This document shows positions 9,094 through 61,737 of a DNA stretch of 64,000 bases, one piece after another. Origin of the DNA: Candidatus Melainabacteria bacterium (GTDB taxonomy: Bacteria; Cyanobacteriota; Vampirovibrionia; 2-02-FULL-35-15); assembly GCA_016193285.1 (NCBI GenBank), contig JACPSL010000011.1, positions 22,645 through 86,644 on the forward strand. The letters run 5' to 3'. Under the pieces are notes generated by a model. The model was not told the origin of the DNA. It worked only from the letters and a program-made list of their open reading frames with translations, and searched no databases. Every line of letters starts with the position of its first letter. The stretch's first letter is position 1. The translations under genes and the position numbers were made by a program.

Positions 9094-10980
9094 ATGAAGG
9101 AACTATTTACAAAGTTATTTTACTTTATCATTGCTGTAGTTTCTACACTACTTTTTTATTTTTTTTATTCAGGCCCAGTAATTGCTGATACTAATGCAAA
9201 GTACATAAATTCTGACTATATTCAAGAGGGCGGTGAAAAAACAAACTGTGAATTAAATGGCGCTTGGACAACAGAATATAACAATTATTACTGGCTTCCT
9301 GAACCTACTAGAACACAAAAAAGTCTGCCGCCGCTTGTAAAAGAAATTACTTATACAGGTGTAACTAAAGAAACAAATTCTGTAGACATAAATACACCAG
9401 AAAGTCTCATACATAAAAGAAATAATTTTTATCTGTCATCTTCTCTAAAAGGTGAATCCATCACAATTACGCAAGAGCTTGAAAATAGCAGCGAATATTC
9501 TGAATGGATTCCTTTAAGCATTTATTTTGATCCAACAGTTACAAATAACTCAGAACAACTAGTAAAAATAAGTCTTTCTTATGCTCATAGCAGTTTAGGT
9601 AATATTGTTTATGTTCAAAATACGAGTTTTAATCTTGGCTGTTATTTAAACTTAATAGTCAAATCTCCTTTAAGAGGACAGATTGGCAGACTTACAATTG
9701 AAATTAAACCTGCAAGTAATGCTTACGCATCATTAAGTGGAATTTTCTGGGGCAAGCAAAAAGAATTAAGTAATTTAAAAGTTTCTTATCATGGCAGTGA
9801 AGAAATAAGTGCACCAATTTGGTATCAAAGCAAAAGAAATGTTGTAATCTGGTCTCCAGAATCTGATACATCAAAAATAAGTATAAGAGTAACTCTTGGT
9901 AAAATCTCATATACAACTTCAACTGGTTTTGAATTCCCACTTGGTAGAGATAGAACATATAACTTTAAAGTATTACAAGGACAAAAAGGGCTTGAGTTTT
10001 ACTTAGGCACAGAGCAAGACTTATGTTCAGGCGGTTGCGAACTTGGTTTATACTTTACTGAGAAACATAAACAATTTATATCAATTTATTCAGCTAACAT
10101 TGATAAGAAAAATATTTTACTTGCAAAAACTGAAACAAACGGTAATGGTACACCCTTATTTGAAAAGTTTTATATAGAACCAAATGACGATGTCTCACTA
10201 AGAGTAAGGATCAACACTAACATTAAAGACTCAACTTCTATACTTAGGGGTTTATATCTTATTCCTAGACAAAACAATTCTTCTCAAATAGTTACTGATG
10301 CTTATGGTAATCAGTACATAAACTTAAGTTCAACTAATGATGTTACTCCCAACATTACTCCCTCTCTTGCCGTCAGTACTTTTACTTCAACCATAGAAGA
10401 AACTCCTAAATCTTCTCCAATTCCTGAACCAACTCCAGAGCCAACACCTGAATCTACAATTATTCCAGATTCTGAGCTTACATCAATTGAATCTTCTCCA
10501 ATTCCTGAACCAATTCCTGAACCAACTCCAGAGCCAACACCTGAATCTACAATTATTCCAAATTCTGAACCTGCATCAATTGAACCTTCTCCAATTCCTG
10601 AATCAACTCCAGAGCCAACACCTGAATCTACAATTATTTCAGATTCTGAACCTGCATCAATTGAATCCTCTCCTACTCTTGAATCCACTCCAGAACTTGG
10701 ACCTACTGACGGGGCAGGAAGTAGCAATCAGCAAAAAGATGATCAACAGCTAGCAAACTACACAGTCCAGCAAGCAGACGATATCTTCCTACCAAATATA
10801 CTTCTGCAAAATGCACTACCAAACGCAACTCAAGTCTCTACTGTACTACCAAACGGAACTCAAATCCCCGATGCACTACCAAATGCAACTCCAAACCAGC
10901 CTGGGAATAGTCACCATCAAGCAGAAGATCATCACCAGCCAAGAAATGGTCATCACTTAGCAGAAGGTGTTGATGAGTAG
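9094..10980 (+). CDS. secreted/membrane-anchored repeat protein with Pro/Glu/Thr-rich tandem repeats
   Basis: N-terminal hydrophobic anchor. The C-terminal half (about 10380-10700) carries three ~90-nt tandem repeats encoding SPIPEPTPEPTPESTIIPDSEP(A/T)SIE, followed by 'LPNATQ' repeats. Confidence 0.6.
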   Translation: MKELFTKLFYFIIAVVSTLLFYFFYSGPVIADTNAKYINSDYIQEGGEKTNCELNGAWTTEYNNYYWLPEPTRTQKSLPPLVKEITYTGVTKETNSVDINTPESLIHKRNNFYLSSSLKGESITITQELENSSEYSEWIPLSIYFDPTVTNNSEQLVKISLSYAHSSLGNIVYVQNTSFNLGCYLNLIVKSPLRGQIGRLTIEIKPASNAYASLSGIFWGKQKELSNLKVSYHGSEEISAPIWYQSKRNVVIWSPESDTSKISIRVTLGKISYTTSTGFEFPLGRDRTYNFKVLQGQKGLEFYLGTEQDLCSGGCELGLYFTEKHKQFISIYSANIDKKNILLAKTETNGNGTPLFEKFYIEPNDDVSLRVRINTNIKDSTSILRGLYLIPRQNNSSQIVTDAYGNQYINLSSTNDVTPNITPSLAVSTFTSTIEETPKSSPIPEPTPEPTPESTIIPDSELTSIESSPIPEPIPEPTPEPTPESTIIPNSEPASIEPSPIPESTPEPTPESTIISDSEPASIESSPTLESTPELGPTDGAGSSNQQKDDQQLANYTVQQADDIFLPNILLQNALPNATQVSTVLPNGTQIPDALPNATPNQPGNSHHQAEDHHQPRNGHHLAEGVDE

Positions 10981-11030: not shown

Positions 11031-11642
11031 TTACTTACATACACATCCTACTCCAAGTGGGTTTTTCGTAGTACCAAAATAAATCATTATCATATTATTT
11101 GCATCAACGTCTCTAAACCAGCATTGTCGATTTTTAAATTTTGTACTGCATGTTTTATCGTCATTAGATCTATCACACTTTTCAAATAATGCATCAGTGG
11201 TACACTCAAATGAAGGGAAATCAAATTCATTAGTAGACACACGACTACCAGAAACACATTTATCCTTTATTGGCTTGTTTTCATAAGTACACTTTTTATA
11301 ACAACCACCAGGTGCTGCAACTGCTGGTAGAAGTATTAACTTCGAAAAATCATAAGATTCATTAGGTTCACAGTAATCTTCTCCTTCTTCCACTGGAATA
11401 TCAGCCTCAGGTAGAAGCCCCTCATCAGTTCCGTAGAAACCCTCATCACCTTGTCCGTTATTTGAAGCTCCATCGGTGTCATCATCTGAAGTTCCATCGG
11501 TGTCATCATCTGAAGTTCCAGTGGTGTCATCATCCTGAGCATTAATTCCAGTATGAATAGCTAGGCTAAAACATAGAGATAACATAAATACCATCAAAAC
11601 ATAAAATAAAATCCTTCTACTTTTCATGCTGTTTCTCCTCAA
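11031..11642 (-). CDS. secreted Cys-rich protein with acidic DDDT(D/G)GTS repeats
   Basis: Signal-peptide-like N-terminus (MKSRRILFYVLMVFMLSLCFSLA). Three 24-nt tandem repeats at ~11470-11540, and about 10 Cys in the C-terminal half. Confidence 0.55.
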   Translation of the reverse strand: MRRNSMKSRRILFYVLMVFMLSLCFSLAIHTGINAQDDDTTGTSDDDTDGTSDDDTDGASNNGQGDEGFYGTDEGLLPEADIPVEEGEDYCEPNESYDFSKLILLPAVAAPGGCYKKCTYENKPIKDKCVSGSRVSTNEFDFPSFECTTDALFEKCDRSNDDKTCSTKFKNRQCWFRDVDANNMIMIYFGTTKNPLGVGCVCK

Positions 11643-11705: not shown

Positions 11706-12341
11706 TTAACCAGCAATTTTATAAATCTTTGCTCCCTTACCTTCTGGAAAAACAATATACCCTTCTAACTTTTCTAAAAGTTCTTGTGATGGATTGTCTG
11801 CTAATTTTAAAATAAGATCTAAAATATCCCTTACTTCTTTATGAACTTCAGCATCTTCTGGCAAATCAGCCGGGTGAGTTACTACTCGCATAGGACTTTT
11901 TTGAATAATTTTTTCTCGCATCTCTACATAATCAGGTGATAAACCAACCACTGCTGAACCTAATGCATCTAACATATCAGCCAGGATCTTTTGTCTAAGC
12001 TCTAACCTCTCTGGATTTTCCTCATCCCACCTGACTAACATTTGTGGCGAGAGCTGTCCAACAATACCATAAATCGTTCCAGGTCCTTCAGCTTTTGTTT
12101 GTAAGCTAACCCCTTCTTCAGTAGTTTTAAGCAAATCAACACTAGCTACTAATTTGCCACCGTATGATAAATATCGTAAAAGCAATACTCCATCGCTGGT
12201 ATGGATTGCTTCTTGTTGAATTACTTTGTCTTTATTTAAAGCATCTGGTTTTCGTTCACATAACACAGCATAGCTTTTAGCTACAAAATCTTCAACTCGT
12301 GCACTAATGTTATTTACTTTCATATAACTAATTTTAACCAA
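11706..12341 (-). CDS. hypothetical protein
   Basis: 211-aa ORF, gene-like composition, no confident motif. Confidence 0.45.
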   Translation of the reverse strand: MVKISYMKVNNISARVEDFVAKSYAVLCERKPDALNKDKVIQQEAIHTSDGVLLLRYLSYGGKLVASVDLLKTTEEGVSLQTKAEGPGTIYGIVGQLSPQMLVRWDEENPERLELRQKILADMLDALGSAVVGLSPDYVEMREKIIQKSPMRVVTHPADLPEDAEVHKEVRDILDLILKLADNPSQELLEKLEGYIVFPEGKGAKIYKIAG

Positions 12342-31150: not shown

Positions 31151-32953
31151 TTATACTAGGGCTTCTGCCTGCATCTCTTTTTCTTTACTTTTTTCCATAA
31201 CATACCAGTCCTTTACTTCAAGTTGGATAAAGATCTCACTGTTATAAAAATTTAACTTTGGAGTGTAAGCAAGTTTTACCTTGTCTCCAATATTAAAGTC
31301 AGCCTTATTGTTGTGATTCCAAATTAAGGCTTCAAGTCTACTAATGTATTTATTTGCCCCATCCCCGATTCGCCGATTCGCCGGTTCGATTGTTAGTTTC
31401 AAATGCTGCCCGTTCTTACCAATATTTCTAATGTTTACAATCTCAACTTCTTCACTTACAAAAACAGGGATAGGATTACCTAACCCAAAAGGAGACAGTT
31501 TGTATATTTCACTCATTAGCTTTAAGTTTAAATTTATAAGTGGAAGTTCAAAGTCAATTTTTAGTATTGGTTCCATATTTGAGTCAAAGAGCAAATTATT
31601 TACATGGTTTTTAAAATCAAAGATAAAATTATTTATATTTTCAGGTTTTATACTTAAGCCACAAGCTAGTTTATGGCCACCAAACTTTTCAAGATGAGTA
31701 GAGCAAGAAGTAATAGCTTCAATAATATTTAAATGTTCTGTACTTCTTCCAGAACCACGTGCAATGTTTTGGTCTTTATCTATTGCAATTAAAATTGTTG
31801 GTAAATTATATTTTTCAACTATCCTTGAAGCAACAATTCCAATTACACCATGGTGCCAGCTTTCTTTAGCTAGTACAATACACTTATCGAGCTGAGTGCT
31901 GACTGCTGATTGCTGATTGCTAATCATTTCCATTGCTTCTTTTAATGTCTCTTCACAAAGAGACTGTCTTTGTTTGTTTTGAGTATCAAGTTCAAAAGCA
32001 ATTCTAGCTGCTTCAAGAGAGTTGTTAGTAGTTAAAAGTTTTACTGCAAGACTTGCATCAGCAAGTCTTCCTATTGCATTTATTCTTGGTGCAATTCCAA
32101 AACCAATATGATCAGTTGTAGGGGCGTGGTTTACCACACCCTGACCGCGTTTATTCATGAATCCACATATCTTAAGTAACTCTTGCAATCCAACTTTTTT
32201 TGTGCTTGCTAATTTAGGGAGCCCGATTTGAACTAAGTATCTATTCTCATCTACAAGTGGAGCAAGATCAGCTATCATACCAAGACAAACAAGATCAAGT
32301 AGCTCTTCTTCGCCGATTCGCCCTTTCGCCCCATCGCCGTTTCGTTCTTCTAAGATAACTTGTGCAAGCTTATAAGCTACTCCAACTCCTGGTAACCAGT
32401 GGAGCTTGTGATCTTGTGGCAGGAGTTTTGGATTTAAAACTGCATAAGCAGACGGAAGAATTTCTGGCAGTGAATGATGATCAGTAACAATTACATCTAA
32501 TCCTAGAGAATTTGCAAATTCGATTTCTTTATGGTTTGTAATTCCACAATCACATGTGACTAGTAGGGATGAATGGCCATTCGTCTCAGCAATTTTTTTT
32601 ACAGCATCTAAATTTAATCCATATCCTTCTGTTAGTCTGTTTGGCATATAAAAATCCACATTGTTTGTAAATTCTTTAAGTGTAATTAAAAGACAAGATG
32701 TAGCAGTAACACCGTCCACGTCATAGTCACCAAAGATTGTAATTTTTTCTTTTTTGTTTATAGCTTCTACAATTCTGTCTTTTGCTTTTATTAAATCTGG
32801 AATTTCTTCAGATAGTGATTCTTTATAAAACTTTGGATCTAAATAAGCTTTTGCTTTTTCTTGTGAATTTATTCCTCTATTTGAGAGTAACTTTTCAATT
32901 AGAAACTCTTTTGTAATTTCTCTGTGTTCTTTTATAAGCCATTTATATTTCAT
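31151..32953 (-). CDS. recJ: single-stranded-DNA-specific exonuclease RecJ
   Basis: DHH motifs ITIFGDYDVDGVTAT and VIVTDHH, a DHHA1 region and a C-terminal OB. Three short tandem-repeat insertions keep the frame. Confidence 0.8.
   Translation of the reverse strand: MKYKWLIKEHREITKEFLIEKLLSNRGINSQEKAKAYLDPKFYKESLSEEIPDLIKAKDRIVEAINKKEKITIFGDYDVDGVTATSCLLITLKEFTNNVDFYMPNRLTEGYGLNLDAVKKIAETNGHSSLLVTCDCGITNHKEIEFANSLGLDVIVTDHHSLPEILPSAYAVLNPKLLPQDHKLHWLPGVGVAYKLAQVILEERNGDGAKGRIGEEELLDLVCLGMIADLAPLVDENRYLVQIGLPKLASTKKVGLQELLKICGFMNKRGQGVVNHAPTTDHIGFGIAPRINAIGRLADASLAVKLLTTNNSLEAARIAFELDTQNKQRQSLCEETLKEAMEMISNQQSAVSTQLDKCIVLAKESWHHGVIGIVASRIVEKYNLPTILIAIDKDQNIARGSGRSTEHLNIIEAITSCSTHLEKFGGHKLACGLSIKPENINNFIFDFKNHVNNLLFDSNMEPILKIDFELPLINLNLKLMSEIYKLSPFGLGNPIPVFVSEEVEIVNIRNIGKNGQHLKLTIEPANRRIGDGANKYISRLEALIWNHNNKADFNIGDKVKLAYTPKLNFYNSEIFIQLEVKDWYVMEKSKEKEMQAEALV
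31363..31392. repeat. GC-rich octanucleotide repeat (ccccgatt/cgccgatt/cgccggtt) inside recJ
   Basis: Direct reading. Shares the unit cgccgatt with the second array at 32311-32344. Confidence 0.8.
31891..31925. repeat. heptanucleotide repeat (gctgagt/gctgact/gctgatt x2/gctaatc) inside recJ
   Basis: Direct reading. It encodes SNQQSAVSTQ on the minus strand. Confidence 0.75.
32311..32344. repeat. GC-rich octanucleotide repeat (cgccgatt/cgcccttt/cgccccat/cgccgttt) inside recJ
   Basis: Direct reading. It encodes NGDGAKGRIGEE on the minus strand. The first array encodes RRIGDGANK, a related peptide. Confidence 0.8.
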
Positions 32954-33398: not shown

Positions 33399-34703
33399 AT
33401 GTCAACATTTACTTATAAAGCACGAAATAATAAAGGTGAACTAAAAGAATCTTCAATTTTAGCTAGTAGTGTTGATAATGCTAGAGCAACATTAAAACAA
33501 GAAGGCTTGTGGGTCCTTGATATTAAACAAATTGATAAAGAAGAAACAAAAGAAGCAAGTGAATTGCCGTTTGCTAATGTGGAAGCTGTGAAAGAACAAG
33601 AACCAGTAAAGAAAGAAAGTATAAAAGAAAAAGATTTCTTGAAAGAGTTTTTAACCAAGTATCAGCCAATTTCTTTAAAAGATATGGTCATTTTTTCCAG
33701 ACAATTTGCTTCAATGGTTGAAGCTGGCGTTGCAATGCTTAGAGCTCTTACTGTTATGACTGACCAGACTCAAAATCCAAGACTAAAAAAAGTATTAGAG
33801 CAAGTAAGATATGATATTGAACAAGGTAGTACTCTTTCAGATGCATTAGAAAAGCATTCTAAAATTTTTGATCGTTTGTATATCTCAATGGTAAAAGCAG
33901 GCGAAGCAGGTGGTGTTTTAGATCAGGTATTAAATCGTTTAGCTTTATTTATGGAAGAAAGGAGCAGACTTACTCAGCAAGTTAAGTCAGCCATGACTTA
34001 TCCTATTGTTGTTATGTTAATTGCAGTTGGTGTTTTTTATGCAATGTTGACTTTGGTGCTTCCAACTTTTTCTGGGCTTTTTACATCGCTTGGTAGTGAG
34101 CTCCCGGCTTACACAAGATTCTTGATTACAATAAGTGAATTTTTAAGATCATGGTATATGTTAGCTGTAATTGCAATAATTGCAGGTTCTGTATGGGGTT
34201 TAAAAAAGTGGTATGGTACAACAGAAGGGAAATTTACAATTGACCTTGCTCTTTTAGGAACCCCTGTTATGGGTGATATTTTAAAGAAGGTTGCAGTAGC
34301 AAGGTTTACCAGGACATTTGGAACCTTGACAAAAAGTGGTGTTCCAATAGTTACTGCATTGGATGTGGTTAAAGATTCTGCTGACAATGCAGTACTTGCA
34401 AAAGCAATTGAAGCAGTACAACAAAGAGTTCAGGAAGGTGGGACTATTAATGGTCCAATGAGTGAAAGTAAAATATTCCCGCCAATGGTTACTCAAATGG
34501 TTGCAATTGGTGAAGAGACAGGACAACTTGAAAATATGTTAGAAAAAGTTGCTGACTTTTATGATGTTGAAGTAAGCACTGCAGTTGAAGCACTAACCTC
34601 GCTTCTTGAACCACTTATGATAGTTACACTTGGTGGCCTTGTTGGTGCAATTGTAGTTGGGATGTACTTGCCAATATTTACTGTGATATCACAGATTAAA
34701 TAG
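33399..34703 (+). CDS. pilC: type II secretion system F / type IV pilus assembly protein PilC family
   Basis: Two T2SSF repeats (DMVIFSRQFASMVEAGVAMLRAL... and FTRTFGTLTKSGVPIVTALDV...) and three TM segments. Confidence 0.75.
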   Translation: MSTFTYKARNNKGELKESSILASSVDNARATLKQEGLWVLDIKQIDKEETKEASELPFANVEAVKEQEPVKKESIKEKDFLKEFLTKYQPISLKDMVIFSRQFASMVEAGVAMLRALTVMTDQTQNPRLKKVLEQVRYDIEQGSTLSDALEKHSKIFDRLYISMVKAGEAGGVLDQVLNRLALFMEERSRLTQQVKSAMTYPIVVMLIAVGVFYAMLTLVLPTFSGLFTSLGSELPAYTRFLITISEFLRSWYMLAVIAIIAGSVWGLKKWYGTTEGKFTIDLALLGTPVMGDILKKVAVARFTRTFGTLTKSGVPIVTALDVVKDSADNAVLAKAIEAVQQRVQEGGTINGPMSESKIFPPMVTQMVAIGEETGQLENMLEKVADFYDVEVSTAVEALTSLLEPLMIVTLGGLVGAIVVGMYLPIFTVISQIK

Positions 34704-34790
34704 ACCATAGACCATAGACCACAGACCATAGGCTACAAGAAGGTCTATAGTCTATAGTCTATTGTCTTTGGTCTTTAGTCTTTGGTCTTT
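34702..34790. repeat. array of ~13 heptanucleotide units (agaccat x4, then tctatag/tctttgg variants) forming an imperfect inverted structure
   Basis: Direct reading gives agaccat-agaccat-agaccac-agaccat-aggctac-aagaagg-tctatag-tctatag-tctattg-tctttgg-tctttag-tctttgg. The second half is approximately the reverse complement of the first. Confidence 0.8.
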
Positions 34791-38540: not shown

Positions 38541-39311
38541 TTAAATTACCCCCTTTGAATAAGATAGCATAAAAATATCCTCAATTGCTTTTATATCTTC
38601 TGGTCTATCTACTGCTGGATAAGATTTCGGTACTACCTCAAGCTTAATCTTAATGCCATTTTCGAGAGCACGGAGTTGTTCCAGTTGCTCTAGCTCTTCG
38701 AGTTTGGATGGAGGTAAGTTACTAAACTTAAGTAATGTTTCTCTTGTGTAAGCATAGATGCCAATGTGGCGGAAATAGGAATTGGTTTCGAGGTTTCGAG
38801 GTTTCGAGGTTTCGAGGTTTTTATAGGGAATTGGTGATCTTGAAAAATAAAGTGCAAAATTATTTTTGTCCATGACTACTTTAACAATACTTGGATTAGT
38901 TAAGTCATCTAGATTTGTAATCGGGGTTACAAGGGTGGACATTTCGAATCCTGAGGTTAGAACTTCTATAACTTTATCTATATATTCACTTGGCATTAGT
39001 GGTTCATCGCCTTGTAAATTAACCACATATTTTATTTCTGGATATTTTTCTGCAACTTCACTAATTCTATCTGTGCCGCATTTGTGATCTTTAGAGGTTA
39101 GACAAACGTCTATCTTAAGTGCTGAGTGCTTGTCAACAAAATCAACAATTCTTTTGTCATCTGTTGCAACAATTATTTTATTTGCAAGTTTTGAACCACA
39201 TGCAGCATTTATTACCCATTCAATCATTGGTTTCCCTGCAATTTTTACAAGTGGCTTTCCAGGGAAACGAGTACTTCCAAAACGTGCTGGAATAATAATG
39301 GCTGTTGTCAT
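38541..39311 (-). CDS. kdsB: 3-deoxy-manno-octulosonate cytidylyltransferase (CMP-KDO synthetase)
   Basis: MTTAIIIPARFGSTRFPGKPLVKIAGKPMIEWV N-terminus. Carries an octamer-repeat insertion that keeps the frame (NLETSKPRNLETN). Confidence 0.8.
   Translation of the reverse strand: MTTAIIIPARFGSTRFPGKPLVKIAGKPMIEWVINAACGSKLANKIIVATDDKRIVDFVDKHSALKIDVCLTSKDHKCGTDRISEVAEKYPEIKYVVNLQGDEPLMPSEYIDKVIEVLTSGFEMSTLVTPITNLDDLTNPSIVKVVMDKNNFALYFSRSPIPYKNLETSKPRNLETNSYFRHIGIYAYTRETLLKFSNLPPSKLEELEQLEQLRALENGIKIKLEVVPKSYPAVDRPEDIKAIEDIFMLSYSKGVI
38784..38823. repeat. octanucleotide tandem repeat (ggtttcga x4 plus a degenerate fifth unit) inside kdsB
   Basis: Direct reading of ggtttcgaggtttcgaggtttcgaggtttcgaggttttta. 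Confidence 0.85.
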
Positions 39312-41455: not shown

Positions 41456-41532
41456 CTTCAGATTAAAGCTAATACAAGTCCTGATATTTATTCTTACCAC
41501 TTATCACTTACCACTGCTAAAATAGCCATGTT

Positions 41533-51860: not shown

Positions 51861-52912
51861 GTAAGGTTACAAGGTTGCAAGGTTGCAAGGTTACAAGGAT
51901 AATGTTCTTCCTTGTCTCCTTGCTTCCTTGCTTTTTTACCTTCTTACCTCCTTCTTTTGCTGAAGACAAATCTCCAGTTAGGCCAAAAATCGGACTTGCT
52001 CTTGGTGGGGGTGGCTCTCGTGGAGCAGCTCATATTGGGGTGTTGAAGGTTTTAGAAAGAGAAAATATTCCAGTTGATTACTTAGTAGGTACAAGTGCAG
52101 GAGCTTTAATAGCTGCATTGTATTCAGGCGGGGTTTGTCCTCGTGAATTAGAAAAATATGTTTTATCTGGTGCAATTAGTAAGGTTTATAAATCAGATTT
52201 TTCACTGCTTAGGGGATTATTTATTTATATTAACAGAACATGGCGAACATTTATTGGCAAGCCTTTTTATGCAGGATTATACAATGATCATAGATTACAT
52301 AATTTTGTAAATAATGCTATTTCAAAAAGTGACGGAACAATTGATCTGGTTATACCTTTGCATGTCATTGCCGTAGATTTAATTAGTGGGCTTCCTGTGG
52401 TTATTAAGTCAGGTGATATTGGTTTAGCTGTACAGGCCAGTACTGCAATCCCTGCCTTACGCCAACCAATAGTAATTAATGAGCAACTACTCGTTGATGG
52501 TGCAGTTTTAAAAAATATTCCAATTGAAGAAGTAAAAAAAATGGGTGCAAATTTAATAATAGCAGTAGATGTAGATACTAAAATGGAGACCTTGAACAAA
52601 GAAGATTTTAGATCATTTGAATCAGTTTTAACAAGGGCAATAAGTCTTGGATTAAGAGCTCAATCAGAAAGCATTCTAAGTAAGGCAGATGTTGTAATAA
52701 ATCCTGATTTAACAGGGATTGGTATTTTAGATTTGGACAAAAAAAGCTTAGCAAAAGCAATTAAAGCAGGTGAAGAAGAAACGATAAAATTAATTCCTAA
52801 AATAAAAAGAAAAATTGAAGAAAAAAATTATGCTTTAAGAACAGCATATCAAGATTCTTCGTCATTATCTTCTTTCTCATCAGGCATGATGTTTCTAAAG
52901 ACTATTAAGTAA
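51857..52912 (+). CDS. patatin-like phospholipase
   Basis: [18 protein letters not shown] oxyanion motif, GTSAGA nucleophile elbow and a DGA catalytic Asp. The N-terminus is encoded by an octamer repeat. Confidence 0.8.
51863..51898. repeat. octanucleotide tandem repeat (aaggttac/aaggttgc x4.5) in the first codons of the patatin gene
   Basis: Direct reading. It encodes [12 protein letters not shown]. Confidence 0.85.
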
Positions 52913-59244: not shown

Positions 59245-60573
59245 GTGCCAGAAATTAAAATAAATTACAAAGATCTTCCCTCATGTGATGTCCTTGTTGC
59301 AGGTGGAGGATCCGCAGGAGTAGCAGCTGCAGTAGGGGCGTTGCATGCAACGCCCCTACAGGTTGTTTTAATTGAAAAAGCAAGTTTCTTAGGTGGAATG
59401 GCAACAGGCGCTCTTGTAACACCAATGATGAAAAATATGCCAATGGGAAAAGGATTGTTTTTAGAAGTTTGTAATCGTCTTGCAAAAGCTGGTGGTGGAG
59501 CCATCTTTGAAGATGGAAATCCGGGCTGGTTTAATCCGGAGGTTTATAAGATTGTCCTTGACGAAATGTGTGTTGAATCAAATGTTAGGTTGATGTTTGA
59601 AAGTCAAATAATTTCCTGTGATGTCTTAAAGGATGAGATAAAAAATATATATTTTTTTAACAAAGGTGGTTTTTTTTCTATCAGCGCTAAAGAATTTATA
59701 GACTGTACCGGTGATGGCGATCTTATTGCTTTATCTGGTGTAAGTTATAAAGCAGGTGAAAATAATTACAGACAAGCAATGTCACTTCGTTTTATGATGG
59801 CTGGAGTTGACTTAAAGACATTTGCTAACTGGCTAAAAGAAAATGATAAAGCTGGCGATTCGCCAGTTTATTTTTTAAACAATGGAGACATTTTACTTTC
59901 AGGTGCACATACTTTTGAAAAAAATTGGACACTAAAACCTTTTTTTGACGAAGCTTTTAAAAATGGTGATTTAAAAAAAGAAGACGCAGCATATTTTCAA
60001 ATTTTTTCAGTGCCAGACTCACAAGGACTTGTTGCATTTAACTGTCCAAGAATTACGCCAGAAGATAAAATTTTAGATCCACTAAATAATGAAGATACTT
60101 CATGGCTTCTAGTTCATGGAAGGCAAATGATAAAGAGACAAAGCACCTTTTGCAAAAAATATCTTCCTGGGTTTAAAGATTCGTATGTTTGTCAGATAGC
60201 ACCATATATTGGTGTCAGAGAAAGCAGAAGACTTGTAGGGCAATATGTTTTAACAAAGGAAGATGTTTTAAGTGCAAAAAAATTTAAAGATGCCATTGCA
60301 AATTCAAATTGGCCAATTGATATTCATCCGCCTGTGGCAGAGACGCGATTAATCACGCCTCTACCACAACAACCACCCAATGGTGATTATTACCAAATAC
60401 CTCTCAGGTCATTATTACCAAAGGAAAATGAAATTAAAAATTTGATTGTTGCAGGGAGATGTCTTTCTGCAGATTTTGAAGCACAAAGCTCTGCACGTAT
60501 TCAGGCAAATTGCTGGGCTATGGGTGAGGCAGCAGGACTACTAGCTGCTAAGAGAATAAAAGCAGTGCGTTAA
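59245..60573 (+). CDS. FAD-dependent oxidoreductase (FAD_oxidored/GIDA-like family)
   Basis: DVLVAGGGSAGVAAA dinucleotide-binding motif. The coding sequence contains a perfect 28-bp palindrome. Confidence 0.6.
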   Translation: MPEIKINYKDLPSCDVLVAGGGSAGVAAAVGALHATPLQVVLIEKASFLGGMATGALVTPMMKNMPMGKGLFLEVCNRLAKAGGGAIFEDGNPGWFNPEVYKIVLDEMCVESNVRLMFESQIISCDVLKDEIKNIYFFNKGGFFSISAKEFIDCTGDGDLIALSGVSYKAGENNYRQAMSLRFMMAGVDLKTFANWLKENDKAGDSPVYFLNNGDILLSGAHTFEKNWTLKPFFDEAFKNGDLKKEDAAYFQIFSVPDSQGLVAFNCPRITPEDKILDPLNNEDTSWLLVHGRQMIKRQSTFCKKYLPGFKDSYVCQIAPYIGVRESRRLVGQYVLTKEDVLSAKKFKDAIANSNWPIDIHPPVAETRLITPLPQQPPNGDYYQIPLRSLLPKENEIKNLIVAGRCLSADFEAQSSARIQANCWAMGEAAGLLAAKRIKAVR

Positions 60574-61695: not shown

Positions 61696-61707
61696 GAGAA
61701 CTAGAGT

Positions 61708-61737
61708 ACAGCGTATAGCGTATAGCGCATAGAATAG
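61708..61737. repeat. heptanucleotide tandem repeat (acagcgt/atagcgt/atagcgc/atagaat) in the intergenic region upstream of ctpA
   Basis: Direct reading. Confidence 0.7.

Follow-up and report, generated by a model that had tools for sequence, protein, structure and literature searches.

Short in-frame heptamer and octamer repeat arrays in variable loops of RecJ in a Melainabacteria genome

How does a gene for a conserved enzyme come to carry short tandem repeats whose unit is not a multiple of three, and yet stay in frame? The question is raised by recJ, which encodes a single-stranded-DNA exonuclease, in a 64 kb window of a Candidatus Melainabacteria genome (GC content approximately 33%; all coordinates below are positions in this window unless a relative's locus is named). 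The gene lies on the minus strand at 31151–32953 and encodes 600 amino acids in one unbroken open reading frame (ORF), an assignment that rests on the ORF list, Pfam and structure matches. An original prediction described three short tandem-repeat insertions within it, two of them GC-rich and one a heptamer array, and proposed a mobile or slippage-generated repeat family tolerated in surface loops of an essential protein. The sequence itself, Tandem Repeats Finder (TRF) and the ORF list place all three arrays where that prediction had put them, inside the one ORF. We find that the arrays exist and are non-random, that arrays recur at the same sites in relatives and in other genes, and that the phenomenon extends well beyond recJ and beyond this genome.

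Array 1 occupies 31359–31390 (minus strand) and reads GGCGAATC GGCGAATC GGGGATGG on the coding strand (ccccgatt-cgccgatt-cgccggtt on the plus strand, 31363–31386), with a decayed fourth unit, GGCAAATA, at 31351–31358. TRF reports it at 31365–31388 with a period of 8, 3.0 copies, 93% matches and a score of 41, and it codes for ANRRIGDGANK in a loop of the OB domain, RRIGDGANK being residues 527–535. Array 2, at 31891–31925 (minus strand), consists of AATCAGC AATCAGC AGTCAGC ACTCAGC and a degenerate fifth unit (gctgaNt on the plus strand; TRF 31891–31921, period 7, 4.4 copies, 91% matches, score 48) and codes for SNQQSAVSTQ, at the end of a long inter-domain helix and in the loop after it. Array 3, at 32309–32344 (minus strand), reads GGCGATGG GGCGAAAG GGCGAATC GGCGAAGA (cgccgatt-cgcccttt-cgccccat-cgccgttt on the plus strand, 32311–32342); it is the weakest of the three by TRF (32309–32331, period 8, 2.9 copies, 86% matches, score 32) and codes for NGDGAKGRIGEE (residues 204–215) in a DHH-domain loop between helices 189–205 and 215–228. 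Translation thus bears out the expectation that the GC-rich arrays encode RRIGDGANK and NGDGAKGRIGEE without breaking the ORF. Only about two perfect units are kept in each array.

When the coding-strand units are rotated into a common register they read as the octamer AATCGGCG in array 1, as AATCGGCG-like octamers in array 3 and as the heptamer AATCAGC in array 2, the heptamer being the octamer AATC(A/G)GCG less one base. By this comparison arrays 1–3 form one unit family with the coding-strand core AATC(A/G)GC(G), and the heptamer array is not of a separate kind from the GC-rich pair as had been supposed; the idea of a repeat family itself fares well, since one core is common to all three arrays and related units recur in relatives. 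The likeness of the encoded peptides (RRIGDGA, GDGAKGRIGE) arises because an 8-nt period gives, in any frame, the cyclic peptide G-E-S-A-N-R-R-I. The octamers of arrays 1 and 3 have a GC content of 62%, in a host of 33% GC. A circular shift by two units gives the best alignment of these two arrays, with 26 of 32 bases matching. All three arrays have fold z-scores near zero (+0.18, +0.22 and -0.23 for arrays 1, 2 and 3 respectively), so that RNA or DNA structure does not account for them, and neither terminal inverted repeats nor a visible target duplication was found at any of the three.

To set a chance baseline we ran 100 third-order Markov simulations of the window. Period-7 or -8 TRF arrays with a score of at least 41 number seven in the window compared to 0.04 expected, and those with at least 60% GC number three compared to 0.02 expected. 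With a stricter detector of our own, applied to periods 4–12, only periods 7 and 8 yield arrays (five observed, against a simulated mean of 0–0.02 per period). Arrays 1 and 3, 940 bp apart, have in common the 14-mer TTCGCCGATTCGCC; only one other GC-rich 14-mer recurs anywhere in the window, which makes two against 0.05 expected. At the lower score of 32, approximately four period-7 or -8 arrays per window are expected by chance; array 3 taken by itself is therefore near noise, and draws its support from its GC content and from the sequence that it has in common with array 1. No other tandem copies of AATCRGC(G) were found in the window or in 13 kb of extra flanking sequence (approximately 77 kb in all), the added flank contributed no new arrays of any kind, and, beyond the arrays themselves, single units of AATCRGC or CGCCGATT are not enriched (16 observed, 13 expected).

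We compared the lengths of the array-bearing segments in an alignment of RecJ proteins from 21 members of the close clade and 11 outgroup members. The three array sites (A, B and C for arrays 3, 2 and 1) and one further site, A2, are the only length-variable places within the first 600 residues. Site A has 18 residues in the window (close clade 8–49, outgroup 13–18 with median 13), a gain of 5; site A2 has 18 (9–24, 6–14 with median 7), a gain of 11; site B has 18 (11–28, 13–15 with median 15), a gain of 3; and site C has 22 (10–30, 11–21 with median 13), a gain of 9. Five control segments are invariant, with 18 residues in the window, close clade and outgroup alike. Marked length variation at the array sites is confined to the close clade, the outgroup proteins being shorter there and nearly constant. 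The segments are thus lineage-specific length additions, as predicted, although to call array 2 an insertion is only partly apt as it adds a net three residues and overlies residues that are present in relatives.

The placement in loops was likewise anticipated and agrees with an AlphaFold2 model of the protein (mean predicted local distance difference test (pLDDT) score 85.7, predicted template modelling score 0.85), in which every site is a loop or the end of a helix, and pLDDT is lowered there. Site A corresponds to loop 206–214 between the two helices named above, site B to the end of the long helix 312–350 and the following loop 351–358, and site C to OB-domain loop 525–539, with pLDDT below 50 at residues 529–536; the loop at site A2 drops below a pLDDT of 50 over residues 268–275. 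Alignments to solved RecJ structures are gapped at sites A and B, the gap at A spanning 6–9 residues. Length variation, predicted loop positions and structure-alignment gaps together show the segments to be lineage-specific, and place the arrays in hypervariable loops that are probably permissive.

The domains of the protein follow the order DHH (PF01368), DHHA1 (PF02272) and RecJ_OB (PF17768), all exceeding Pfam cut-offs, and it matches the solved RecJ structures 8y30 (E 3.6e-93), 5f54 and 2zxo. The catalytic residues D76/D78/D80, D135, D158-H159-H160, D229 and G425-G426-H427 occupy alignment columns that are invariant among orthologues, and the gene therefore looks functional. RecJ is not known to be essential in general, and the description of it as such was unfounded. 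An NCBI RecJ labelled 'Candidatus Melainabacteria bacterium' is 100% identical to that of the window, and the protein sequence is the same on all three contigs on record; the next-nearest relatives are 60–70% identical, followed by a further tier at approximately 45% in which the named sequences come from Cyanobacteria, Caenarcaniphilales and other Melainabacteria. At 600 residues the window protein lacks a C-terminal region of approximately 200 residues found in most close relatives (approximately 800 residues). That region is also repeat-bearing in relatives (e.g. TGGTCTGCCCCAACA x3, at 12197–12241 of the locus L002 introduced below).

A scan for GC-rich islands revealed a fourth GC-rich insert in recJ, missed in the original inventory of three. 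It lies at site A2 (32118–32149) and comprises GTAGGGGCGTGGTTTACCACACCCTGACCGCG, an imperfect GTAG-tagged hairpin (weak, fold z -1.0) coding for the low-confidence loop KRGQGVVNHAP (residues 268–277), at which indels are also concentrated in the clade. Within the window its first nine bases, GTAGGGGCG, occur only there and at 59332. At the latter place (59332–59359) an FAD oxidoreductase gene (59245–60573) holds, in frame and in the region of the Rossmann motif, a perfect palindrome of 28 nt with a GTAG tag, GTAGGGGCGTTGCATGCAACGCCCCTAC. That palindrome has a fold z of -5.4 and translates as VAGGGSAGVAAAVGALHATPLQVVLIEK, and the same gene at locus L127 matches Pfam FAD_oxidored; it looks like an element of the repetitive extragenic palindromic (REP) type within a conserved fold. 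The recJ insert is, to judge from the common 9-mer and tag, a decayed copy of the intact palindrome.

Arrays of the same periods occur elsewhere in the window. The most notable is a perfect octamer array of GGTTTCGA x4.6 (coding strand AAACCTCG) at 38784–38820 on the minus strand (TRF 100% matches, score 74), which lies in frame inside a kdsB-like cytidylyltransferase gene (38541–39311; Pfam CTP_transf_3 over residues 4–222) and codes for KNLETSKPRNLETN. The loop concerned is six residues longer than in four relatives, which have no proto-unit there. A slip of a single unit in this array would frameshift the gene, probably an important one. Two intergenic loci carry inverted pairs of arrays on the plus strand: the heptamer pair ATAGACC x4.6, spacer, GGTCTAT/GTCTTTA x6.9 at 34700–34790, which starts at the stop codon of pilC and folds at -39.8 kcal/mol (z -6.3), and the octamer pair AAGGTTRC x4.5, TCCTTGCY x5.6 at 51863–51953, directly 3' of an APS-kinase stop codon and folding at -40.3 kcal/mol (z -6.3). 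The first is probably a terminator or RNA-stability element. The second lies between genes matching Pfam APS_kinase and Patatin, and its 3' arm, read from an ATG at approximately 51903, translates as a candidate signal peptide of the downstream patatin-like protein, so that the repeat may supply coding sequence. An independent Logan assembly reproduces the window's other arrays with equal copy numbers.

We then compared the recJ DNA of five relatives (loci L001, L002, L123, L124 and L125) at the four sites; the inserts differ from one relative to the next, where there is one at all. Site B of L001 holds a perfect GGCGTGTC x3.5 array, while at its site A a GC-rich palindrome of 60 nt is preceded by the heptamers AATCAGA/GATCAGA/AGTCAGC and followed by further heptamers. 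In L002 an in-frame, GC-rich hairpin element of 95 nt (ACGTCATTGCGAGGAG...CTCCTCGCAATGACGT) occupies site A, and site C has an array of AGAGATC x4.4 followed by a spacer and an inverted TCAYCTC array; L123 has hairpin elements at both A and A2, and L124 plain sequence at all sites. The GC-rich hairpin elements at the relatives' recJ sites measure 60–95 nt. Site B of L125 carries five units of the AATCAGA/AGTCAGA type at the same place as array 2 of the window (20 of 30 nt identical). In place of the window's GCGAATCGGCGAATC at array 1, L125 reads ACGAATCAC, a difference that would fit the local growth of array 1 from a proto-unit. The heptamer family of the relatives is also found between genes and in other genes there, with related units at several loci of L002 and L125. 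Separately, at 2600–2694 of L002, GAGATTG x3.3 and TCTCTGA x4.9 lie within the 3' part of a gene for an S1-domain protein. Across the six related genomes (167 kb) we counted approximately 11 arrays deep within ORFs, seven of them in recJ; these counts are biased and the apparent excess in recJ is set aside, because the relatives were picked for their odd RecJ inserts.

As an unselected control we took 80 distant RecJ loci (743 kb; RecJ 33–41% identical) from among the matches listed by a metagenome scan that used generic RecJ motifs of the close-clade alignment. True in-frame heptamer arrays occur in two of the 80, both in loop A2 of RecJ genes of cyanobacterial type, one of them GGGCAAT x19 followed by ATTCCCA x4.6 and the other AAAATCC x5. 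The former (L198, 6793–6962, JAESFN010000289.1; RecJ 35% identical, locus GC 0.41), whose second block is inverted, adds approximately 57 residues (GQGAMGKGQWAMG..., IPNSQFPIPNS). In this sample recJ holds four of 32 arrays, no higher than its share of the sequence. A TRF 'octamer array' at 2899–2940 of locus L140, in a GC-rich RecJ, proved a false positive, a conserved WHHGIIGIVASR motif written in GC-rich codons, and cautions about repeat calls inside genes.

A scan of genome contigs with the pattern GGCGAATCGGCGAATCGG listed at least 120 matches, almost all from GC-rich taxa (median locus GC 0.62); there are no Melainabacteria among the matches listed, which gives no verdict on copies in that lineage. 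The same listed matches include RGCGAATC arrays of up to 19 copies in metagenome-assembled genomes (MAGs) of Anaerolineae and Thermoflexus, and Chloroflexota arrays that alternate AATCAGCG and AATCGGCG within single arrays. Arrays of (A/G)GCGAATC recur there across contigs (L119 778–931, L004 1219–1300, L103, L027, L044 and others) whose hosts are MAGs of Anaerolineales, Thermoflexus and other Chloroflexota. In Chloroflexota (A/G)GCGAATC thus apparently forms a dispersed octamer family, its unit the same as that of the recJ arrays.

We favour, at a probability of about 0.6, an explanation in which the recJ arrays are of the short tandemly repeated repetitive (STRR) type, arose by slippage or template switching, and survive in frame and free of stops in permissive loops, their peptides being neutral passengers. 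Slipped-strand or template-switch replication would expand or copy a short 7- or 8-nt unit, and such arrays would arise genome-wide in this lineage, most of them landing between genes, often as hairpin-forming inverted pairs. Survival within a gene would require a net length that is a multiple of three, a reading strand without stops and a structurally permissive loop, and the four permissive RecJ loops of the Melainabacteria clade would have been filled repeatedly and independently by different repeats. The Gly/Arg/Asp-rich peptides that result most likely have no role in RecJ. Both the generating mechanism and the neutrality are what we infer, and neutrality in particular is assumed.

Several observations weigh against this explanation. 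Units of 62% GC in arrays 1 and 3 are odd products for the expansion of local sequence in a 33% GC genome, and an exact 14-mer at two places 940 bp apart points to a common source that was copied rather than to two independent local births. The arrays also seem to overwrite loop sequence rather than just extend the loops, the kdsB-like array occupying 37 nt for a net gain of 18 nt and that at recJ site B 31 nt for a net gain of 9 nt, and relatives show no proto-unit at either site A or the kdsB-like gene. The likeness at site B of L125 (20 of 30 nt) suggests that array 2 may be inherited rather than new, and gains cannot be dated since the closest sequenced relative is only approximately 70% identical. 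Taken together, the high GC of the units, the common 14-mer and the overwriting make a mobile or templated-copy origin the chief rival explanation.

In its mobile form this rival, which we consider possible but unlikely, treats the arrays as fragments of mobile elements of very small size, similar to REPs or to the small dispersed repeats (SDRs) of Nostoc, that were inserted into recJ by an enzyme and did not grow by local slippage. It would account for GC-rich inserts in an AT-rich host and for the exact 14-mer in arrays 1 and 3, and it gains from the fourth insert, at 32118–32149, a decayed copy of the palindrome intact at 59332–59359. The in-frame hairpin elements in the same recJ loops of relatives, that of L001 sitting within a heptamer array, also fit, as do the in-frame REPs in DNA-repair genes documented in PMC3733652 and the dispersed RGCGAATC family in several Chloroflexota MAGs among the matches listed. 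However arrays 1–3 are strand-asymmetric direct repeats with no hairpin and no visible target duplication, tandem copies of the unit are absent elsewhere in the approximately 77 kb examined, and single units are not over-represented, results that do not bear out the earlier suggestion of mobility. The wide diversity of units among the window arrays argues against one mobile sequence, and there is no transposase among the array-adjoining ORFs that were checked against Pfam, the window's ORFs as a whole not having been scanned for transposases.

Selection for repeat-encoded loops that change RecJ (e.g. its OB-domain binding of single-stranded DNA, or a mutator-like loosening of repeat stability) appears rather improbable. 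Array 1 does put RRIG into an OB-domain loop, Di Nocera et al. (PMC3733652) speculate that REP insertions in repair genes make mutators, and seven of the approximately 11 arrays deep within ORFs of the six related genomes are in recJ. But this last count suffers from the choice of relatives for odd RecJ inserts, and in the unselected sample only two of 80 RecJ carry true arrays and recJ holds no more of the 32 arrays than its share. Nothing is conserved, as each relative has a different insert or none, and model confidence is low at the inserts. It is improbable too that recJ is a preferred and not just a tolerant target in this clade, with repeat loops or frameshifts weakening RecJ so that array spread reinforces itself; if true, a weakened or switched RecJ would raise array formation and spread genome-wide. 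In E. coli, tandem repeats are reportedly kept stable by single-strand exonucleases of which RecJ is one (work by Feschenko, Rajman and Lovett of 2003). We regard as highly improbable the suggestion that the arrays are contingency tracts for phase variation, switching recJ off and on through gain or loss of one unit. Any single-unit slip would cause a frameshift because the period is not a multiple of three, and the kdsB-like array is perfect over 4.6 units, yet the recJ arrays keep only about two perfect units each, all three recorded contigs give the same RecJ protein (a weak test, being one of assemblies only), and copy numbers of the window's other arrays do not differ in the Logan assembly. 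Finally, the periodicity could be a meaningless by-product of ordinary coding sequence, which is barely credible as a general account. False positives of this kind do occur, as L140 with its conserved WHHGIIGIVASR motif demonstrates, and array 3 alone is near noise, approximately four arrays of its score being expected per window. The segments fall, however, in non-conserved lineage-specific loops and not in conserved motifs, and expectations of 0.02 for the GC-rich arrays and 0.05 for the common 14-mer are far below what was observed; for arrays 1 and 2 this account is refuted.

The slippage explanation likens the arrays to the STRR heptamers of cyanobacteria, which are said to have been described by Mazel and colleagues in 1990. 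Heptamer repeats such as TAACTGA and GGGGA(C/T)T are abundant in cyanobacteria, mostly between genes and occasionally within ORFs (PMC4679880, PMC4692102). The likeness extends in part to a 7-nt tandem unit (AATCAGC in array 2, but AATCRGCG, one base longer, in arrays 1 and 3), to a few to about 20 copies with many arrays per genome, to locations that are mostly intergenic near stop or start codons, often as hairpins, and at times in frame within ORFs, to a host of cyanobacterial lineage, and to the core ATCAG, which is also contained in TCAGTTA, the reverse complement of TAACTGA. The excess of period-7 and -8 arrays in the window (seven with a score of at least 41, compared to 0.04 simulated) belongs to the same pattern. 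There are also differences, as two of the three recJ arrays use an 8-nt unit (array 2 has period 7, x4.4), the host is a non-photosynthetic Melainabacteria MAG rather than a heterocystous cyanobacterium, and the units are diverse within 64 kb, with no single dominant one. Furthermore the recJ unit is not found at other loci within the approximately 77 kb, although related units do recur in L002 and L125.

Elhai and colleagues reportedly found in 2008 that SDRs of Nostoc and Anabaena lie inside tandem heptamer arrays and are sometimes coding without a break in frame. The GC-rich palindrome flanked by heptamers at site A of L001 resembles these, on a comparison by description only, whereas the window recJ arrays have no embedded element. 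A published catalogue covers REP-type palindromes that sit in frame within genes for DNA replication and repair, and offers the mutator idea as speculation (Di Nocera et al. 2013, PMC3733652). As described there, intragenic REPs and the Rickettsia palindromic elements, GTAG- or CGTC-tagged, are short GC-rich in-frame repeats in loops of conserved proteins, as are those described here. That description suits the fourth recJ insert, the 59332 palindrome and the elements at site A of relatives. Arrays 1–3 differ in being direct tandem repeats without a stem-loop (z +0.18, +0.22, -0.23) and without the GTAG/CGTC tag, GTAG being present at 32118 and 59332. The main text of PMC3733652 makes no mention of recJ, its supplementary list of target genes not having been searched.

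A further parallel is offered by the tandem repeats within Borg ORFs, in which the units are said to be multiples of three, unlike the 7- and 8-nt units here, for which only particular copy numbers stay in frame. In both cases recently formed repeats inside ORFs add low-complexity and probably disordered peptide, those of Borg proteins creating disordered regions (PMC9879509). No paper tying Melainabacteria to such repeats was found in the literature searched. What is added here is the presence in Melainabacteria of octamer and heptamer STRR-like arrays and REP-like hairpins, repeatedly in the same RecJ loops. Both types of repeat appear to reach from photosynthetic cyanobacteria into their non-photosynthetic Melainabacteria sisters, with the same few loops of conserved enzymes remodelled repeatedly. 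For annotation, odd Gly/Arg/Gln/Ser-rich inserts in Melainabacteria proteins are better read as repeat-derived than as functional motifs, and 7- or 8-nt units within genes are latent frameshift sites. The recJ arrays reveal no new kind of system; they are a local case of the short-repeat clutter that characterises the cyanobacterial lineage, and most likely harmless passengers.

TRF also identified two intergenic heptamer arrays in the window, TAGCGTA x4.4 at 61702–61732 and CTTACCA x3.3 at 41493–41515. Two ORFs contain longer coding tandem repeats (81-nt x2.3 at 10409–10696 and 24-nt x3 at 11460–11534) that are of a different kind from the 7- and 8-nt arrays. At 152–223 the GC-rich islands AGCCGCCAGCAGGACTTGAACCTGCGACC and GCTCTACCACTGAGCTATGGCGGC resemble a putative tRNA gene on the minus strand.

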